Shown here one piece after another: positions 2,753 to 16,030 of a DNA stretch of 51,448 bases (position 1 is the first letter of the stretch; the number at the start of each line of letters is the position of its first letter). The notes under the pieces were generated by a model. That model had not been told where the DNA came from and searched no databases. It worked only from the letters and a program-made list of their open reading frames with translations. The DNA is from a virus (lineage: Duplodnaviria > Caudoviricetes). The DNA lies in IMG/VR virus record IMGVR_UViG_3300012923_000003, positions 1 through 51,448 of that record; one strand, 5' to 3'. Made by a program: the position numbers and the translations under genes.

Positions 2753-3086
2753 TACCATCAAATGGAAACATGGCATACTCGGTACCTATAGATATCTCGA
2801 AGGTGCGTATTTATCCGGGCCAATGAGTCACAAGGAAGTCTATCTCCTAGGCTTTGCGCGACCTCATTTTCCTGTACCTGCAATTCAAGTCAAGTGTTTC
2901 TTTCATCCTGAATATATTAACGTTGTTAGGTACAATGGTAATCAAGGGATATATGGTCCTGGATATGAGACTATTCATGAATGGCCAACACGATATCTCT
3001 GTATCTCTACTAAAGAGTTACACTGTCAAACACTAGGATATGCACAATGTGAATACTGTGCATGGCGTGAACGAGGGAATAAATGA
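2745..3086 (+). CDS. Hypothetical protein with Cys-rich C-terminus
   Basis: RBS GAGGA before ATG 2745; C-terminal C..HC..CEYC. Confidence 0.6.
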   Translation: MVDTIKWKHGILGTYRYLEGAYLSGPMSHKEVYLLGFARPHFPVPAIQVKCFFHPEYINVVRYNGNQGIYGPGYETIHEWPTRYLCISTKELHCQTLGYAQCEYCAWRERGNK

Positions 3087-3643
3087 AACGTATCGGTATC
3101 TTTATCGACGGGTCTAACCTATACATGAGTACTAAGGCATTGAGCTTCAGAGTAGACTTCACTAAGTTACTTAACTACTACAAGCAACAAGGTGATGTAG
3201 CCCATGCCTTCTACTTCACTGCTCTACCACCAAAAGAAGTTCAATCACCTTTACGTAAGATGATTGATTACGTGGATTACAATGGCTGGACTGTAATCCA
3301 GAAAGAAACCAAGAAATATGTTGATCTTGAGGGAACAGAGAAACTCAAGGGCAATATGGATGTGGAGATAGCGGTACATGTTGCTGAAACTGCACCGTTC
3401 ATCACTAACTTAATCTTATTCTCTGGGGATGGAGACTTCCGTGTACTACTGGAATCTATTCAGCGAAGGCATGGTATACATTGTACTGTTATCTCCGCTC
3501 GGAGTTTGGTGGCTGATGGACTACGTCGACAGGCGAATGAATTCATAGACTTAGCCACACTCAAGGATGCGTTCAACCATGAGCCCGAGCAGGAATCTGT
3601 GCGCCCCAAGCGCAAAAGATTCTTGTTTGGCCCAGAAAAGTGA
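3083..3643 (+). CDS. NYN domain (LabA/DUF88, PIN-like) nuclease
   Basis: Motifs IFIDGSNLY, KGNMDVEIA, LFSGDGDF, LRRQANEFIDL with the catalytic Asp residues intact. Confidence 0.93.
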   Translation: MKRIGIFIDGSNLYMSTKALSFRVDFTKLLNYYKQQGDVAHAFYFTALPPKEVQSPLRKMIDYVDYNGWTVIQKETKKYVDLEGTEKLKGNMDVEIAVHVAETAPFITNLILFSGDGDFRVLLESIQRRHGIHCTVISARSLVADGLRRQANEFIDLATLKDAFNHEPEQESVRPKRKRFLFGPEK

Positions 3644-5110: not shown

Positions 5111-5364
5111 TGCACAAGCGTAAACGGTGCTGGTTCTGTGCCCAAGAAAATGTCCGTAGGACATTCAAGAACCGAACTGCAATGCGAAACCACATCTTCC
5201 AGAGCCATCCGGATGAAGCGGCTATCCGCATTGCCTCGTTCAAACGTGTTGGTGAACGAGGTGTTCCCAATGTAGTGCACTACGGTGCACGTATGCGCAA
5301 GAAACTTGGACTTGAATACAACAAGGCCGGGCATCTGCGTTCTACTCTGGAGCCAGCAGCATGA
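5110..5364 (+). CDS. C2H2 zinc-finger-like protein
   Basis: CWFC...TFKNRTAMRNHIFQSH; TAATG translational coupling. Confidence 0.65.
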   Translation: MHKRKRCWFCAQENVRRTFKNRTAMRNHIFQSHPDEAAIRIASFKRVGERGVPNVVHYGARMRKKLGLEYNKAGHLRSTLEPAA

Positions 5365-5534: not shown

Positions 5535-7020
5535 CCAACCACAGACCATCATCCACGCCAAGGCGGGACACCAAGTTCCCAAGGAATTGTGGGAGACTGC
5601 ATTACGCAAGTGTCCTACGGTATCTGGTTATGCCATCCGTGACACTCACGATGACAAGACCACTCTCGAAACTGAGCACTATACTCAGGCAGTCACCGTT
5701 GACAATATGTCGACACTGGAAGGGCAGGCCAAGGAATATGAACGAGTTTACTATCTAGCCAATCTTCCTGGCACTCATACTAAAGATGATGTGCAACCAT
5801 TTGTACTGACCATCATGGAAGATGAGCAGGACACTATCGGCATCGATATACTTTCCTTCTTTCTGGAAGGAGACTTCCCCAAATACTCTGATCCCAAATC
5901 AGGACACACTGACGAATACAATTTCGCCTATGAAATTGTTATCCCTACCTTGCAGGACATGTTCATGGCCGCCGGTCAAGACATCGCCCTGTTCACTGCT
6001 GCTCTGCACAAGCCATTGTTCGAGAAGAATTTGATGGCTCATGTCAACCATCGCGCGGCATTCGTGTTTCTTCCTCTACAGGGCGATCCGATTAAATTCG
6101 GTACCAATGAGCTGGGTCTCGGCGCTGACTGGGGTAGCTGCTCACAGCATTTAGACTTTGCCAAGGTGGAAAAACCTATTATCGCGGCAGTCGCAAAGGC
6201 GGCGGGGAAATTCAATCCATTTAAGAAGGCAGAGCCGGCATTGCCTGGAGGGGTTTACCATACTCCTGAAAAGAAGCCAGTCGAGGATCCAAAACCTGAT
6301 ACAGCAATCAACGCCGGCAAAAAGCTGATCAAACTTCCATCAAAACTGGATAAGTCTGGCAGGAACCGATGGCTACGTCTATTCAATGGTGGTGATCTGC
6401 CAAAAGATCATGATCATCGAGATTTCCAGGGTCTCTGGATTAGTCCGGAAGCTCTACCCTATGCACAACGCGATGTTGCTACATTGGCTCAGGTCGATGC
6501 TCTCGGAGCCGAGATGCGTAAGGGTGTTAAGTCTCCCCCCAAGGATATGCGGCCACCGCCAAGTTCTGCTACGGATTATCTGCCCACATTGACTGATGCA
6601 GACATGACCGAACAGACTGGCATCTTGGCCAAGTTCGTCGACCGCGACAAGGTGCCTTCAGCTCTGGATATTCAAAAGATGGAGGCCAAATGGCCAACCT
6701 ATTCGGAGAAGATGGGCATTCCATTCGAAGGTATGTTCCGTTGGACTGACATCGAAATTCTCGAAGTCTGCGGAGGACATAAACCAGCTATGATGTTGGT
6801 CTTGGAATTCAGACGTCGGCTGATCGAGAAGTGGGACCCTGCTGGCTTCACTGCTTCGGTCAAGACTGGAACCGAGGCTGCCAAACATGTTGCAGCCAAG
6901 GAAATCCTCAAACCCGGTGAAACCAAGCAAGTTGGTAGTACTACATTCAAAGCTGCGGCTGAACCGACCACTGCGGCAGCAAAGCGGAATGCCTTGTTCG
7001 GCATCAAGAAATCAGCTTAG
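5527..7020 (+). CDS. Degenerate class-II glutamine amidotransferase-like N-terminal domain plus unknown C-terminal region
   Basis: IIHAKAGHQVPKELWE...PTVSGYA, DDVQPF, LEG and TDEYNF parallel phage GATase-II motifs; catalytic N-terminal Cys is absent. Confidence 0.55.
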   Translation: MINQPQTIIHAKAGHQVPKELWETALRKCPTVSGYAIRDTHDDKTTLETEHYTQAVTVDNMSTLEGQAKEYERVYYLANLPGTHTKDDVQPFVLTIMEDEQDTIGIDILSFFLEGDFPKYSDPKSGHTDEYNFAYEIVIPTLQDMFMAAGQDIALFTAALHKPLFEKNLMAHVNHRAAFVFLPLQGDPIKFGTNELGLGADWGSCSQHLDFAKVEKPIIAAVAKAAGKFNPFKKAEPALPGGVYHTPEKKPVEDPKPDTAINAGKKLIKLPSKLDKSGRNRWLRLFNGGDLPKDHDHRDFQGLWISPEALPYAQRDVATLAQVDALGAEMRKGVKSPPKDMRPPPSSATDYLPTLTDADMTEQTGILAKFVDRDKVPSALDIQKMEAKWPTYSEKMGIPFEGMFRWTDIEILEVCGGHKPAMMLVLEFRRRLIEKWDPAGFTASVKTGTEAAKHVAAKEILKPGETKQVGSTTFKAAAEPTTAAAKRNALFGIKKSA

Positions 7021-13744: not shown

Positions 13745-14239
13745 TTGGTTAAATACGGTAAGACAGAAACAGTTTATGTTCAAGGCAAGGTATCTTGGTT
13801 TAGAAACAAGACACCTAACCAATGGAATAAATACGCAGTTCAAATTCATCCTAATGTCAAAGACTTAGAAGTCATTCGTGAACTTCAATCCCAAGGCTTA
13901 AAGAATGTAATTAAGAAAGATGATGATGGATACTATATTAGCTTCACTAGACCGGTGACTAAAGAATATCAGTCTGGTAGAATACAAAGCTATGCACCAC
14001 CTACAGTGACTGATAAAGATGGTAACATCTATGAAGGTCAGGTAGGTAATGGCAGTGATGCTACTTTGAAGCTTGAAGTCTATGAGCATGCTACCCCAGG
14101 TGGTAAGAAAGCCAAAGCTGCTCGGTGGGTATCAGCTCGGATAGATAATTTAGTACCTTTTGAAACTGAGACAGATACTTTCCCTGAACAGAAGGTAGCC
14201 ATCGAAGGATTAAAGGAACAACCTGAACAGTTATTCTAA
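13745..14239 (+). CDS. Single-stranded DNA-binding protein (putative)
   Basis: Position after polA; GKVSW, PxVxD and VGNGSDATL; acidic C-terminus ending in F. Confidence 0.75.
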   Translation: MVKYGKTETVYVQGKVSWFRNKTPNQWNKYAVQIHPNVKDLEVIRELQSQGLKNVIKKDDDGYYISFTRPVTKEYQSGRIQSYAPPTVTDKDGNIYEGQVGNGSDATLKLEVYEHATPGGKKAKAARWVSARIDNLVPFETETDTFPEQKVAIEGLKEQPEQLF

Positions 14240-15720
14240 TCCTCCAGAATACTAGTTGACTGGAGTGCCACATATCTCTCGTGTGCTAAGGATCCCGTAG
14301 GGCACCGGCGAGGGAAGCCCAACTAATACTTAATTCTACAGCATGAACCCTACACGCTTCCAGAAAGCTTACTAAGAAGTAAGCAACCCCACCCTCTGGT
14401 CGGACTCAGGTACCGGGCTGTATGAACCTCGGATATAGTCCGAGAGGAAATGAACCAATGTGACTTCCCTACTGGGAATGTAACCATCAGGGTGACAACC
14501 TTAAAGTCAGCAATAGCCCAGGAAGATCGGTGCAAATCCGATAGAGGTTACCAAGGGGTCTACTTCTTAGGTAGATAAATCCTCTACTGTTCAAGGCGGT
14601 ACTGGTGAGCAAGATGGTGAGCAAAGGTAGCGAGCACAACCGTAAACCAGTCTCATTAGCTGGAGCGGCAGATAGCAAATAGAACGCGTATGTGGCGGCT
14701 ATGGTGCATAGTATGTCTAACCTCTGTAGAGGACGCGCATGAGGATAAAGGACTTGTCTTAAATGGCTAACAAGCTGAAGCGGTCTGAAGTTTGACTAGG
14801 TGTACGGAATAAAGGTTGATCTACCACTCCCTGTTGGTTCGATTCCAACACTCCGTGGGACGGAGACTGGCGGCAATGGTGGCGCGCATAAAGCTGAGCA
14901 AGTTTCGGTGCGATGCCGATAGAGCTTGAGTAGCAGATGGCTCAGTTAGTACCCGTGTAGTAGATGGATAGATGACCGAGGGACGTAGGCACTGTGAAAG
15001 GTGTCAATGCTGGTTCGAGTCCAGTCCTAGTATGTGTCGTAATGTAGTAGGCTTGTGATAAAAGCGAGATCCGAACTGGGAACACCATCAGTGACTGGTG
15101 TAGCGTTAAGGGTAAGAGATACCTCTCAGCCTCTCTGACCCCACTGTTACCACTGTTCGAGTAAGGTTGGCGCTCTAGATGTGAGTGACTCTTGAATACC
15201 CACACCCTTCAACATAGTCCTGAACCTACCCTAGACGGCCCTGTGGTTCTGGTCGCGTAGACGCAGCATTTCTTGTACCGCACACTGGATACGGATAACC
15301 TCCAGGCCTATGAGCGGGATGTGCAAGGAGTCGGAAGATCGAGAGATGCGCAGTAGCGAATAGTCTATTCGCAAGACTGGATATAGACTGTCTACATTGA
15401 CAGGGGTATGAACGCCGCGTAAAGATCACCGCGAGACGCGTACCAAGCAACCGACTACTGAGACTAAGCGTACCGCTGAAAAGGAAAGATAAGCATACGC
15501 CGAATAGCAACATAGGACGTATTATAGTAGGTCGTTACATGACTGAGATAATATGCAGTAGCTGGTCCAGCAAGTCCATAGAACTTAACCGTAGGAACAC
15601 CGGACTAGTGTTCAACTGCATGGAGGATGTACCGTGAATATTCGTTCCTCACAGCAGAAACCCAGACCTCCTTAAGAAAATCAACAGGCAGGGGTGGGCC
15701 ACGTTTGAGCCCACCCCAAG
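14240..15720 (+). ncRNA. Candidate giant structured non-coding RNA with multiple tRNA-like T-arms
   Basis: No credible ORF over 1.48 kb; more than 25 helices found by eye, with G.T pairs on the + strand; T-arms at 14526, 14585, 14832, 14905 and 15009; closing GC hairpin 15691-15717. Confidence 0.75.
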
Positions 15721-15739
15721 CTACAAAGGAGAGCGTGCC

Positions 15740-16030
15740 ATGAAGAAGATTATCATGGTCGACCCTAATGATTTCTTCACCGGTCGATCAAAGCGTGATA
15801 TGATCCCAATGGATGATCTAAAAGTATACAAGAAATGGAAGAAGTTCTTGAAAAAGGAAGAAGAAGAGAAGAATAAAGCTAAGAAAGGCCCAGAAGGATG
15901 GTGGGCTAGGAAGTCTGTTGCCGAGAGGACATGTATCATTGCCATCTTTGGTCCGCCAGCAGGCATAGCTTATGTCTTCGGACTACTACAGGTTGCTAAA
16001 CTATTGGCTATATCGGCAGGTGTCCACTGA
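15740..16030 (+). CDS. Hypothetical membrane protein
   Basis: RBS AAGGAG; K/E-rich N-terminus and hydrophobic C-terminus. Confidence 0.75.
   Translation: MKKIIMVDPNDFFTGRSKRDMIPMDDLKVYKKWKKFLKKEEEEKNKAKKGPEGWWARKSVAERTCIIAIFGPPAGIAYVFGLLQVAKLLAISAGVH

Follow-up and report, generated by a model that had tools for sequence, protein, structure and literature searches.

The window analysed here, the whole stretch of 51,448 nucleotides of viral DNA, contains an ORF-free gap on the + strand between an SSB-like gene (13745–14239) and an ORF of 96 amino acids (15740–16030), which is followed by a gene for a Cas4-type exonuclease; the locus lies downstream of genes for a primase-helicase and a DNA polymerase. 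The 164-amino-acid neighbour protein resembles phage ssDNA-binding proteins (atlas score of 0.97), which we regard as a lead only, and the search for the identity of the 96-amino-acid neighbour gave no lead. The gap is occupied by a predicted structured RNA (Table 1). No promoter-like site was found within this RNA, and counts of promoters and terminators across the region were near the shuffle means. The RNA contains one weak terminator-like hairpin (15619–36), and a candidate phage promoter word at 14323–43 is unique in the genome. The phage also encodes an NYN-domain nuclease, which was rejected as a dedicated partner of the RNA given that, of 10 relatives with complete genomes, only 4 carry it. 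None of the nearby genes was recognised as one of defence or counter-defence.

Table 1 Features of the RNA locus, with positions in the window.
Feature	Position	Strand	Sequence and remarks
Structured non-coding RNA	14326..15722	+	ORF-free gap with covarying fold; ends placed by conservation only
Conserved hairpin	14493..14509	+	UGAC-N9-GUCA within GGUGAC...GUCAGCAA, just 5' of modules 1 and 2
Module 1	14526..14553	+	AUCGG-UGCAAAU-CCGAU followed by AGAGGUU-A-CCA; lineage-specific insertion
Anticodon-like arm	14559–75	+	UCUAC-UUCUUAG-GUAGA; precedes module 2
Module 2	14585–601	+	UACUG-UUCAAGG-CGGUA; unit 14559..14601 resembles decayed tRNA-Lys(CUU)
Domain C	14770..15056	+	~290 nt; closed by P1 and P2; holds modules 3, 4 and 5
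P1 helix	14770–76 with 15050–56	+	All 7 pairs formed in 16/16 versions; 4 with compensatory changes
P2 helix	14780–84 with 15036–40	+	92.5% paired; 4 covarying pairs
D-stem-like helix	14804..14806 with 14984–86	+	ACG with CGU; closes ~175-nt insert holding modules 3 and 4
Module 3	14832..14850	+	UGUUGG-UUCGAUU-CCAACA; in 16/16 versions
Hairpin H3b	14851..14865	+	CUCCGU-GGG-ACGGAG; directly 3' of module 3; 97.9% paired
Module 4	14905..14919	+	UCGG-UGCGAUG-CCGA; in 15/16 versions (deletion in L005)
Hairpin H4b	14924..14934	+	GCU-UGAGU-AGC; 3' of module 4; closing pair G-C in 8 versions, U-A in 7
Hairpin A	14987..15006	+	6–7 bp, loop GUGAAA; anticodon-arm position, 2–4 nt 5' of module 5
Module 5	15009..15025	+	GCUGG-UUCGAGU-CCAGU; 16/16 versions, 6 variants, 100% paired

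The initial annotation had placed five T-arm modules in this gap, none of them in a complete cloverleaf. Direct reading confirmed all five stem-loops (14526–42 for module 1, and the positions in Table 1 for modules 2 to 5) together with the 3' flank claimed for module 1, AGAGGTT followed by A and CCA (14551–53). A search for a 5-bp stem with a T[TG]C[AG]ANN loop, which misses module 4 with its stem of only 4 bp, matched the whole window 4 times on the + strand, always between 14526 and 15025, and 5 times on the – strand, where the matches were scattered over the 51 kb. The motif GGTKCRANNCC was found 4 times in all over the two strands of the 51-kb window, each time on the + strand between 14529 and 15022, compared with an expectation of 0.75 (s.d. 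of 0.91) in shuffled sequence; a single shuffle of 100 reached 4 matches, and these were unclustered. The clustering of T-arms in the window is thus non-random.

A complete cloverleaf was absent, as had been noted: ARAGORN with default settings called no tRNA gene and no tmRNA in the window, and Rfam gave no match at gathering score over the same length. At E ≤ 10 over 14100–15850, Rfam yielded no match to the tRNA clan, the only hit being a chance lncRNA (E of 1.4). The pseudogene-type ARAGORN run that had been recommended (–ps80) did return cloverleaves, at 14465–549, 14531–608, 14784–858 and 14957–15034, but poor ones only, with 'anticodons' of 2 or 4 nt or with mismatched acceptor stems. 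We also rejected a tmRNA, for which the default run made no call and –ps80 made only implausible permuted calls.

For comparison among relatives we used an alignment (A2) of 16 distinct versions of the RNA, each of 1151–1419 nt, with a mean column identity of 58%. For a structure derived from the same alignments in which pairing and covariation were scored, 92.1% of cells at the 264 predicted pairs of A2 were paired, compared with 36–40% in slid controls, and 127 of the 264 pairs were changed on both sides (33–42 in slid controls; equalled in 0 of 500 shuffles), cell counts that overstate the number of independent events because the 16 versions represent only a few lineages. No ORF conserved across the 16 versions was found: version L007 has only two ORFs of at least 45 amino acids, the + strand frames of the window carry 24–42 stops, and two – strand ORFs within the region gave no PHROG match. 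Read from the opposite strand, the conserved G-U pairs would become A-C, and the RNA is therefore assigned to the + strand. Judged from this covariation, modules 3–5 belong to a very large (~1.4 kb) structured RNA of a soil phage family. The class is absent from Rfam, was not found in the literature searched, and is so far confined to uncultured soil phages; in CRP-9, a cultured relative, the genes are in the same order and the region is missing.

The hairpin just 5' of modules 1 and 2 covaries (UGAC/GUCA, UGAU/AUCA and UGGC/GCCA). It is present in L009, L010, L015, L019, L022, L030 and L033, L017 and L018 have it with an insertion of 1 nt, and it is the sole sequence element that can be recognised also in distant relatives. 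Ten conserved motifs of the window, searched with mismatches allowed in 31 distant loci, gave scattered chance matches only, clade-level nhmmer profiles did not reach beyond the close clade, and 50,697 phage records searched by blastn with the gap contained no match. The absence of bacterial matches, both for the domain C motif in bacterial genomes and for exact copies of a 23-mer of module 1 in one genome each of 185,579 species, leaves no prophage, host or attP lead. An attP copy of a tRNA 3' end was rejected on the same 23-mer and on the lack of an integrase family, none having been found in Pfam and PHROGs scans of the window ORFs. Close to the 3' end of the RNA there is an invariant 16S-like anti-Shine-Dalgarno sequence, ACCUCCUUA, which hints at a link to ribosomes.

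The five modules were expected to be conserved, with no intact tRNA at their positions in relatives, and this was borne out for modules 3–5 (16, 15 and 16 of the 16 versions, respectively) but not for modules 1 and 2, which had no match in 71 other loci. These two modules sit in a hypervariable helix tip of 40–90 nt and are missing in the closest relatives. Module 1 resembles module 4, as had been pointed out, with 19 of 23 nt identical (14527–49 versus 14905–27); the internal duplication then proposed is plausible in the direction from module 4 to module 1, of which module 1 is probably a copy. For module 1 with its ACCA, the 6/7-bp partner overlaps the loop of a conserved hairpin and occurs in the window alone. 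Module 2, together with the anticodon-like arm before it, has the look of a decayed tRNA-Lys(CUU); this unit was called only by ARAGORN –ps80 and has a poor acceptor stem and D-arm, and the minimum-free-energy fold does not contain module 2. Modules 1 and 2 probably constitute a private tRNA-like insertion devoid of function.

The ACCA after module 1 bears on the suggestion that the RNA provides a replication primer or origin, in which a tRNA-like 3'-ACCA end would be extended by a T7-type primase/polymerase. The location of the locus between the SSB-like and exonuclease genes, downstream of those for the primase-helicase and DNA polymerase, is in keeping with such a role, as is the precedent of T7, for which tRNA priming was reportedly described by Zhu et al. 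However, module 1 and its ACCA are missing in all other versions, modules 3–5 have no free 3' end, and CRP-9 does without the region despite its shared gene order. We consider a primer function highly unlikely.

Modules 3–5 lie together in domain C. The domain model, likewise scored on the alignment used to derive it (A1), was paired in 96.4% of cells, compared with 36–46% in slid controls, and 21 of its 48 pairs were altered on both sides, compared with 2–5. Module 3 occurred in 7 sequence variants with 100% of cells paired and 4 of 6 pairs covarying, and its loop was UUCRAUY in all 16 versions. It had been assigned an acceptor-like pairing between ACGGA at 14804 and TCCGT at 14852, which exists in the window but is not supported by comparison: the 5' strand of this stem is deleted in two relatives, and a change of TCCGT to TCCCA is compensated in the downstream strand by a change of ACGGA to TGGGA. 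The comparison indicates that the partner of TCCGT is the downstream strand of H3b, not 14804; in L003, three pairs of H3b are altered on both sides. Module 4 likewise had 7 variants, its inner 4 pairs being 100% paired and 2 of them covarying. Its loop has G at the U55 position in the window, L002 and L059 and reads UUCGAUS in 12 of the 13 others, L005 being without the module. The loop of module 5 was UUCRANU in 16 of 16 versions. In hairpin A, 6 of 7 pairs covary and 88% of cells are paired. The 3' flank of module 5, CCUA (15026–29), pairs with UAGG (14797–800), the AGG/CCU helix being formed in 9–12 of 13 versions with one compensatory case. The D-stem-like helix (88.6% paired, 2 covarying pairs), whose GCG/CGC of most versions is replaced by ACG/CGU in the window, is predicted with moderate confidence, there being few covarying cases for it and for the 3-bp closing helix of module 5. 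Changes within T-arms 3–5 are compensatory, and the loops, U(U/G)CRA, are closed by two G-C pairs. To judge from this pattern, modules 3, 4 and 5 are T-arms under selection.

These results speak to the idea that the T-arms are plain relics, the slowest-decaying remnants of phage tRNA genes, without present function. Modules 1 and 2 behave in just this manner, being private, poorly folded and confined to a hypervariable tip, and real tRNAs are found in the same intergenic region of two distant relatives, L043 (Ile) and L029 (Trp), among the 14 relatives searched; ARAGORN with default settings called one tRNA in 40 related loci, that of L043. For modules 3–5, however, 100% pairing with compensatory changes at a mean column identity of 58%, within enclosing helices that themselves covary, cannot be explained by neutral decay, and we regard the relic explanation as improbable.

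Modules 3 and 5 possess every element of a tRNA T-arm (5-bp stem, G53-C61 and U54-U55-C56-R57-A58); in modules 1 and 4, position 55 is G, and module 2 has a weaker stem. The more general T-loop motif, U(U/G)CRA after a G-C pair, was present at T3 in 16 of 16, at T4 in 15 of 15 and at T5 in 16 of 16 versions. An acceptor consisting of a 7-bp stem with a free discriminator and CCA was not found for modules 3–5, which have no conserved NCCA and whose flanks pair into hairpins or continuing helices. A 7-nt anticodon loop was also lacking in hairpin A, with its loop of 6–8 nt (GUGAAA), the only loop of anticodon type (UUCUUAG) being that of the private module-2 unit. The description of the modules as tRNA-like T-arms without any complete tRNA was therefore upheld. 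The further description of them as anticodon-less did not hold for module 2, which follows the anticodon-like arm UCUAC-UUCUUAG-GUAGA, or for module 5, with a conserved hairpin in the anticodon-arm position.

Processing by RNase P/Z had been offered as one function. In the form considered here, each unit of a T-arm and its closing helix would imitate the acceptor/T 'top half' of a tRNA, and host RNase P and/or RNase Z would cut the transcript at these points, either releasing sub-RNAs or separating the upstream and downstream mRNAs. The T-arms are very close to the tRNA consensus, and module 5 and the arm of the L019 clade are stacked on an acceptor-like closing stem. The RNA also lies within a + strand operon and has neither a promoter-like site nor a clear terminator-like one to itself, and the phage encodes the NYN-domain nuclease. 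A precedent is the YrlA of M. smegmatis, a T-arm-bearing tRNA-like RNA cleaved by RNase P (PMC4201824); according to the same paper, a 7-bp acceptor stem is a major determinant for that enzyme. The stems adjoining the T-arms here are 3–6 bp with bulges, however, hairpins instead of acceptor strands lie 3' of modules 3 and 4, no conserved NCCA lies downstream of modules 3–5, and the NYN gene has the limited distribution given above. Processing as the role of the T-arms is thus doubtful in our estimation.

Beyond the 16 versions, we examined T-arms in 25 relatives. Strict GG-UUCRANN-CC arms numbered 37 in the homologous gaps (37.5 kb), 2 elsewhere on the + strand (236 kb) and 0 on the – strand. 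A strict T-arm was missing from the gap in 6 of the 25 relatives, and the number per RNA varied from 0 to 4. The sub-clade of L019, L028 and L023 has a conserved T-arm that stacks on a closing stem of 5–6 bp, with a connector that tolerates an insertion of 54 nt. L013 carries UGCRA loops, and L016, a weak match to the covariance model, has hairpins other than T-loops at 2 of 3 positions, so that T-loops do not appear to be indispensable family-wide. A rule that a hairpin always precedes the T-arm was rejected for lack of enrichment (20 of 44, versus 35.5% of random positions, for stems of at least 4 bp); among such units the module-5 type alone recurs, its hairpin A unit being found in the distant relatives L024 and L012.

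A varying number of canonical T-arms, with several in one RNA, is what an arms race would predict if the RNA were a decoy or sponge, its tRNA elbows titrating host proteins that bind tRNA, for example modification enzymes or defence nucleases directed at tRNA, and the private module-2 unit does carry a loop resembling a Lys (CUU) anticodon. Yet modules 3–5 are without an anticodon loop, which to our knowledge is required by known anticodon nucleases; the T-arms are embedded in a large, tightly covarying fold and are not repeated as independent units, and the neighbourhood offers no recognised defence or counter-defence gene. A decoy role, also put forward in the initial annotation, seems unlikely.

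The reading that we prefer, with a probability of roughly 0.55, is that modules 3–5 are functional, selected T-arms forming the core of domain C, an exapted tRNA scaffold in which the T-loops make structural contacts. In the predicted fold, module 5 would retain the connectivity of a cloverleaf: its T-arm is stacked on a closing helix, from which a 2-nt linker leads to a D-like stem of 3–4 bp; a hairpin takes the place of the anticodon arm, and a 'variable loop' of 2–4 nt precedes the T-arm. It would depart from tRNA in that the closing helix continues into P2 and P1 without a terminal NCCA, the 'anticodon' loop is GUGAAA, and the 'D-loop' is expanded to ~175 nt with two more T-arms, each followed by a small hairpin. 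Most likely, the T-loops act as in the tRNA elbow, RNase P, T-box leaders and raiA RNA, each being a compact U-turn module that a distant strand would contact through an intercalated purine and a pairing partner. Candidate purine-rich partner strands are GGAAUAAAGG (14806–15), GUAGUAGAU (14957–65) and AAUGUAGUAGG (15041–51). Such contacts would hold the domain in its three-dimensional fold and might also expose surfaces resembling the tRNA elbow. Among the three functions originally suggested, tertiary contacts by the T-loops, as predicted here, best fit the anatomy. The G at the U55 position of module 4 in 3 versions and the UGCRA loops of L013 also fit a structural T-loop better than strict recognition by an enzyme. 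On the other hand, most structural T-loops do not need a sequence as strict as the near-perfect GG-UUCGAnY-CC found here, and tRNA enzymes or RNase P, if they recognised the arms, would account for this strictness just as well.

An extension of the scaffold reading, which we put forward tentatively, is that the RNA represents a new class of giant phage RNA, larger than GOLLD, with an 'inside-out' tRNA core that displays three elbows and either docks on elbow readers or multimerises. If so, it could dock on RNase P, the ribosomal L1 stalk/E site or T-box-like RNAs, or the T-loops might be used to build a multimeric particle, as in GOLLD and ROOL. The three T-loops, the closing helix and the GUGAAA loop provide specific testable positions.

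In RNase P and T-box leaders, the T-loop motif serves long-range contacts. The five-nucleotide U...A turn also occurs outside tRNA for this purpose in rRNA and raiA RNA, and the present RNA shares the turn itself with all of these; the T-loops of those large RNAs, however, usually deviate from the tRNA sequence and often lie in internal loops, whereas the present RNA keeps three complete tRNA-type T-arm hairpins. Use of the motif by RNase P and T-box leaders is reportedly covered in PMC4919913, and a T-loop with an intercalating A is seen in raiA RNA (bioRxiv 10.1101/2024.12.08.627333). With tRNA itself, the RNA shares the T-arm consensus (two G-C pairs and UUCRANY) and, at module 5, the connectivity and linker lengths of the cloverleaf, but it lacks a 7-bp acceptor stem with free NCCA, a 7-nt anticodon loop and a normal D-arm.

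Long non-coding transcripts containing a tRNA-like fold without decoding include MALAT1, of which mascRNA is a tRNA-like processing element. Arabidopsis GUT15 is likewise reported to have a tRNA-like fold within a long non-coding RNA. These elements differ in being eukaryotic, single, complete and excised cloverleaves, whereas the acceptor stems here are incomplete. YrlA and other bacterial Y RNAs are likewise non-coding and also phage-borne, with a tRNA-like domain that lacks an anticodon and contains a conserved T-arm; the YrlA T-arm is a substrate of TruB, and the RNase P cleavage mentioned above concerns one member (PMC4201824). YrlA is small and adjoins a Ro60/Rsr gene, whereas the present RNA has three T-arms in a domain of ~290 nt and no Rfam match to YrlA or Y RNA, and no Ro60-type (TROVE) family was found among the 39 window ORFs scanned in Pfam, a set that includes only some of the small ORFs.

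A further likeness is to GOLLD and ROOL, which are also very large, heavily covarying, phage-encoded and tRNA-linked RNAs. Their models gave no match at gathering score in the window, at E ≤ 10 over 14100–15850, or in 14 related loci, and the sizes differ (~1.4 kb here versus ~800 nt for GOLLD and ~580 nt for ROOL). GOLLD and ROOL assemble into homo-oligomeric cages. As in GOLLD, tRNA-like parts lie in the middle of the RNA; bioRxiv 10.1101/2024.12.08.627333 places tRNAs sometimes within the GOLLD linker. The embedded units here are T-arms within the covarying fold, however, not whole tRNAs. Few RNAs are as poorly understood as GOLLD and ROOL, which are recurrently linked to tRNA. In the RNA described here, the tRNA parts appear to be built into the covarying fold and long kept, instead of being neighbours, and the loss of the acceptor end and anticodon while the T-arms stayed would provide a concrete case of the exaptation of tRNA into a larger RNA.

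All five T-arm-like stem-loops (modules 1 to 5) could be read in the sequence as described in the initial annotation, and module 1 is followed by AGAGGUU-A-CCA, the tRNA-like 3' end reported there. The similarity noted between modules 1 and 4 also held, with 19 of 23 nt being identical, and module 1 appears to have been copied from module 4. A pattern consisting of a 5-bp stem and a T[TG]C[AG]ANN loop matched the + strand four times genome-wide, always within 14526-15025, and GGTKCRANNCC occurred four times on both strands, all in 14529-15022, compared with 0.75 times genome-wide in shuffled sequences. This clustering of T-arm-like motifs is far beyond chance. ARAGORN detected no tRNA in the window, and an Rfam search of the window yielded no hit at gathering score and, over 14100-15850, nothing tRNA-like at E<=10, consistent with the claim that no module lies in a complete cloverleaf. 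When the ARAGORN threshold was dropped to 80%, four poor cloverleaves appeared over modules 1, 2, 3, and 5, with "anticodons" of 2 or 4 nt or with acceptor stems containing mismatches.

The window record is complete (51,448 bp, with direct terminal repeats), and all modules lie in a 1.5-kb gap without credible ORFs that has replication genes on the + strand on both sides. Among phages in culture, marine roseophages and pelagiphages come nearest, their DNA polymerase identity being <40%. The gene order of the window (polymerase, SSB-like, exonuclease) is kept in the cultured Roseobacter phage CRP-9 (locus L082, MW514246.1 10686-12163), with ~80 nt in place of the 1.5-kb non-coding region. Because the closest cultured relatives, CRP-9 among them, do not possess this region, the RNA is an acquisition particular to this family of soil phages. 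The genome also encodes a 186-aa NYN-domain protein (3083-3643, + strand), a predicted RNase (Pfam PF01936, E 6e-27); homologues occur in only four of 10 complete genomes of relatives, and the RNA and this gene therefore do not strictly go together.

About 70 related loci were collected from viral and metagenome collections by protein-anchored searches and by pattern searches, and nearly every relative has an ORF-poor gap of 1.2-2.1 kb at the equivalent place. We aligned 16 distinct versions of the RNA (1151-1419 nt), with the ends placed by conservation alone. In the consensus fold of 264 pairs, 92.1% of cells are paired, compared with 36-40% when partners were slid, and 127 pairs are altered on both sides, compared with 33-42 in the slid controls, the structures having come from the very alignments on which they were tested and the 16 versions representing only a few lineages, so that cell counts overstate independent events. 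None of 500 shuffles reached the observed pairing or covariation values. Given that invariant G-U pairs would be A-C on the opposite strand, the + strand is the RNA strand. The covarying fold of the 16 versions, together with the finding of no ORF conserved across them, shows that the ncRNA assumed in the initial annotation is real as a conserved structure.

The conserved RNA is terminated by a strong hairpin of 9-11 bp, eight pairs of which covary; no T-run follows it, and the 96-aa ORF has its ribosome-binding site directly downstream. The version of this hairpin in the related locus L003 has a T-loop-like loop (GGGUUCGAGUCC). Also near the 3' end, GACCUCCUUAA (15664-15675) is almost invariant in the 16 versions and contains ACCUCCUUA, the 9-nt anti-Shine-Dalgarno end of 16S rRNA. 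Its partner in the consensus fold is the equally invariant UGAGGAUAAAGG (14740-14751), ~920 nt upstream, with no covariation in this predicted pairing among the 16 versions; an alternative partner for GACCUCCUUAA could be AAGGAG (15727-35), the ribosome-binding site of the gene that follows. In the 3' half, at about 15165-15235, the window carries a private insertion of ~70 nt that all other versions lack.

Modules 3, 4, and 5 are enclosed by two closing helices, P1 and P2, in the central domain of the RNA (domain C). P1 is paired in all 16 versions, with compensatory changes at four of its seven pairs, and the loops of T-arms 3 to 5 (those of modules 3 to 5) are each closed by two invariant G-C pairs. 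In a 48-pair model of domain C, 96.4% of cells are paired, compared with 36-46% after sliding. The relatives have no intact tRNA at the positions of these modules, and the T-loops are conserved. Simple decay, which the initial annotation had named as the alternative, is ruled out for modules 3 to 5 by the conserved, covarying arms and enclosing helices: old tRNA genes decaying neutrally are excluded because the stems stay paired with compensatory changes and the loops are conserved. The acceptor stem proposed for module 3 (ACGGA 14804/TCCGT 14852) was not supported, its 5' strand being deleted in L003 and L055. In L003, TCCGT is changed to TCCCA with a compensating change of ACGGA to TGGGA downstream, and the partner of TCCGT therefore lies in H3b, a hairpin 3' of module 3. 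Each conserved T-arm region is followed by a conserved purine-rich single-strand motif, the three motifs being at 14928-39, 14955-75, and 15041-52; GUAG(U/C)AG is common to all three, and the last (UAAUGUAGUAGG) is invariant in 16 of 16 versions. These motifs are candidate T-loop partners.

Features of the non-coding gap, its flanks, and two related loci
Feature	Position	Description
Primase-helicase and DNA polymerase	flank of gap, +	
164-aa protein	flank of gap, +	resembles phage ssDNA-binding proteins (lead only)
96-aa ORF, then Cas4-type exonuclease and endonuclease I	after gap, +	
Gap	14240-15739	
RNA	14326-15722	
Module 1	14526-42	
Module 2	14585-601	
Domain C	14770-15056	
P1	14770-76/15050-56	
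P2	14780-84/15036-40	
T-arm 3	14832-50	16/16 versions; 7 variants; every stem cell paired; loop UUCRAUY
H3b	14851-65	
T-arm 4	14905-19	15/16 versions (L005 deletion); 7 variants; inner 4 pairs, every cell paired; loop U(U/G)CGAUS
Hairpin 3' of module 4	14924-34	small, covarying
Hairpin A	14987-15006	
T-arm 5	15009-25	16/16 versions; 6 variants; every stem cell paired; loop UUCRANU
End hairpin	15691-15717	
L043 tRNA Ile-GAU	6881-6952	46 bits; distant relative, homologous intergenic region
L029 tRNA Trp-CCA	5282-5353	38 bits; distant relative, homologous intergenic region

The surroundings of module 5 are predicted to have cloverleaf connectivity with tRNA-like linker lengths. The 3' flank of the module, CCU(A), pairs with (U)AGG (14797-800), and 2 nt further on is a stem of 3-4 bp formed by ACG (14804-06) with CGU (14984-86), or by GCG/CGC in most relatives. 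Hairpin A (6-7 bp with a GUGAAA loop, six of seven pairs covarying) is followed, after 2-4 nt, by T-arm 5. Support for the two short helices, derived from few covarying cases, is moderate. Unlike in a tRNA, however, the "D-loop" is ~175 nt and holds modules 3 and 4, the 7-nt anticodon loop is absent, and the "acceptor" helix runs on into P2 and P1 with no NCCA end. An insertion private to the window (14784-14796), with a second copy of CUGAAG, separates P2 from the closing helix of module 5.

Modules 1 and 2 lie apically in a long helix that is conserved (14460-88 with 14613-37), directly 3' of the widely conserved hairpin UGAC-N9-GUCA. The helix tip that carries them is 40-90 nt and differs in every lineage, and 14517-14605 had no match in 71 loci except one of 14 nt at chance level; conservation was not borne out for these two T-loops. 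Apart from the window, L007 is the only lineage whose tip has a T-loop-like hairpin (CUGG-UGUGACU-CCAG). The ACCA after module 1 is private to the window, and the possible acceptor partner of this module (14497-503, 6/7 bp) is the loop of the conserved hairpin. Upstream of module 2, UCUAC-UUCUUAG-GUAGA (14559-75) makes a good anticodon-like arm; the remainder of this "tRNA-Lys(CUU)" is broken, and module 2 is not formed in the minimum-free-energy fold. Both modules are probably private tRNA-like debris. Module 1 was not copied from the end of a host tRNA in the manner of an attP site, since its 23-mer had no exact match in 185,579 species, each represented by one genome. In both lineages whose hypervariable tip bears a T-loop-like hairpin, the stem of this hairpin matches that of module 4 of the same genome (UCGG/CCGA in the window, CUGG/CCAG in L007). 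Copying may thus have occurred repeatedly, gene conversion may have acted, or the two hairpins may have to match.

Among 25 relatives, 37 strict GG-UUCRANN-CC arms were found in the homologous gaps (37.5 kb); elsewhere there were two on the + strand (236 kb), both just beyond the crude gap limits, and none on the - strand. At least one strict T-arm is present in the gap of 19 of the 25. Given that six gaps have none and that the covariance-model match in L016 has other loops at two positions, T-arms are not universal. A true tRNA lies in the homologous region of two of 14 relatives searched with Rfam, and ARAGORN with default settings found one tRNA among 40 loci. The L043 tRNA begins with 9 nt (GGGACGUAG) that recur at 14980-88 of the window, directly before hairpin A, a match that may be due to chance. 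Primary sequence is conserved only in the clade of the window, with three exceptions: the GGUGAC...GUCAGC hairpin is common to distant relatives; the domain C covariance model has weak matches in L016, L012, L024, L033, L010, and L027 (9-23 bits over all distant matches, with rough E-values); and the unit of hairpin A plus T-arm recurs in L024 and L012. Another sub-clade (L019, L028, L023) has a conserved T-arm that stacks on a closing stem of 5-6 bp, the connector of which tolerates a 54-nt insertion.

These comparisons show that selection maintains the three canonical T-arms within a large + strand RNA fold that covaries. Their predicted role is that of T-loop modules like those of the tRNA elbow, with every T-loop taking a base or pairing partner from a distant strand, and such contacts would fix the architecture of domain C, which may descend from, or closely copy, a tRNA. 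A viable rival reading is that the T-arms imitate tRNA for RNase P, RNase Z, or modification enzymes: they fit the tRNA consensus very closely, and, according to a study of YrlA (PMC4201824), a T-arm domain of this kind can be a substrate for modification by TruB and for cleavage by RNase P given a 7-bp acceptor stem, whereas the stems here are 3-6 bp. Two observations lean towards the structural role. The G that three versions have in place of U55 in module 4, like the UGCRA loops of other family members, speaks against tRNA pseudouridine synthase being strictly required, and modules 3 to 5 are embedded in enclosing helices rather than being free units.

The observation in the initial annotation was thus confirmed, and its interpretation is partly supported. 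Our verdict, from sequence comparison, is that modules 3 to 5 are real and unusual, probably exapted tRNA T-arms lying at the core of a giant phage RNA of a new kind. Such an RNA was not found described in a full-text literature search, and supplementary files may list more cases. Its nearest analogues are GOLLD and ROOL, with covariance models showing it to be a member of neither family. The present RNA is longer, and what its fold incorporates are parts of a tRNA, not whole tRNAs.
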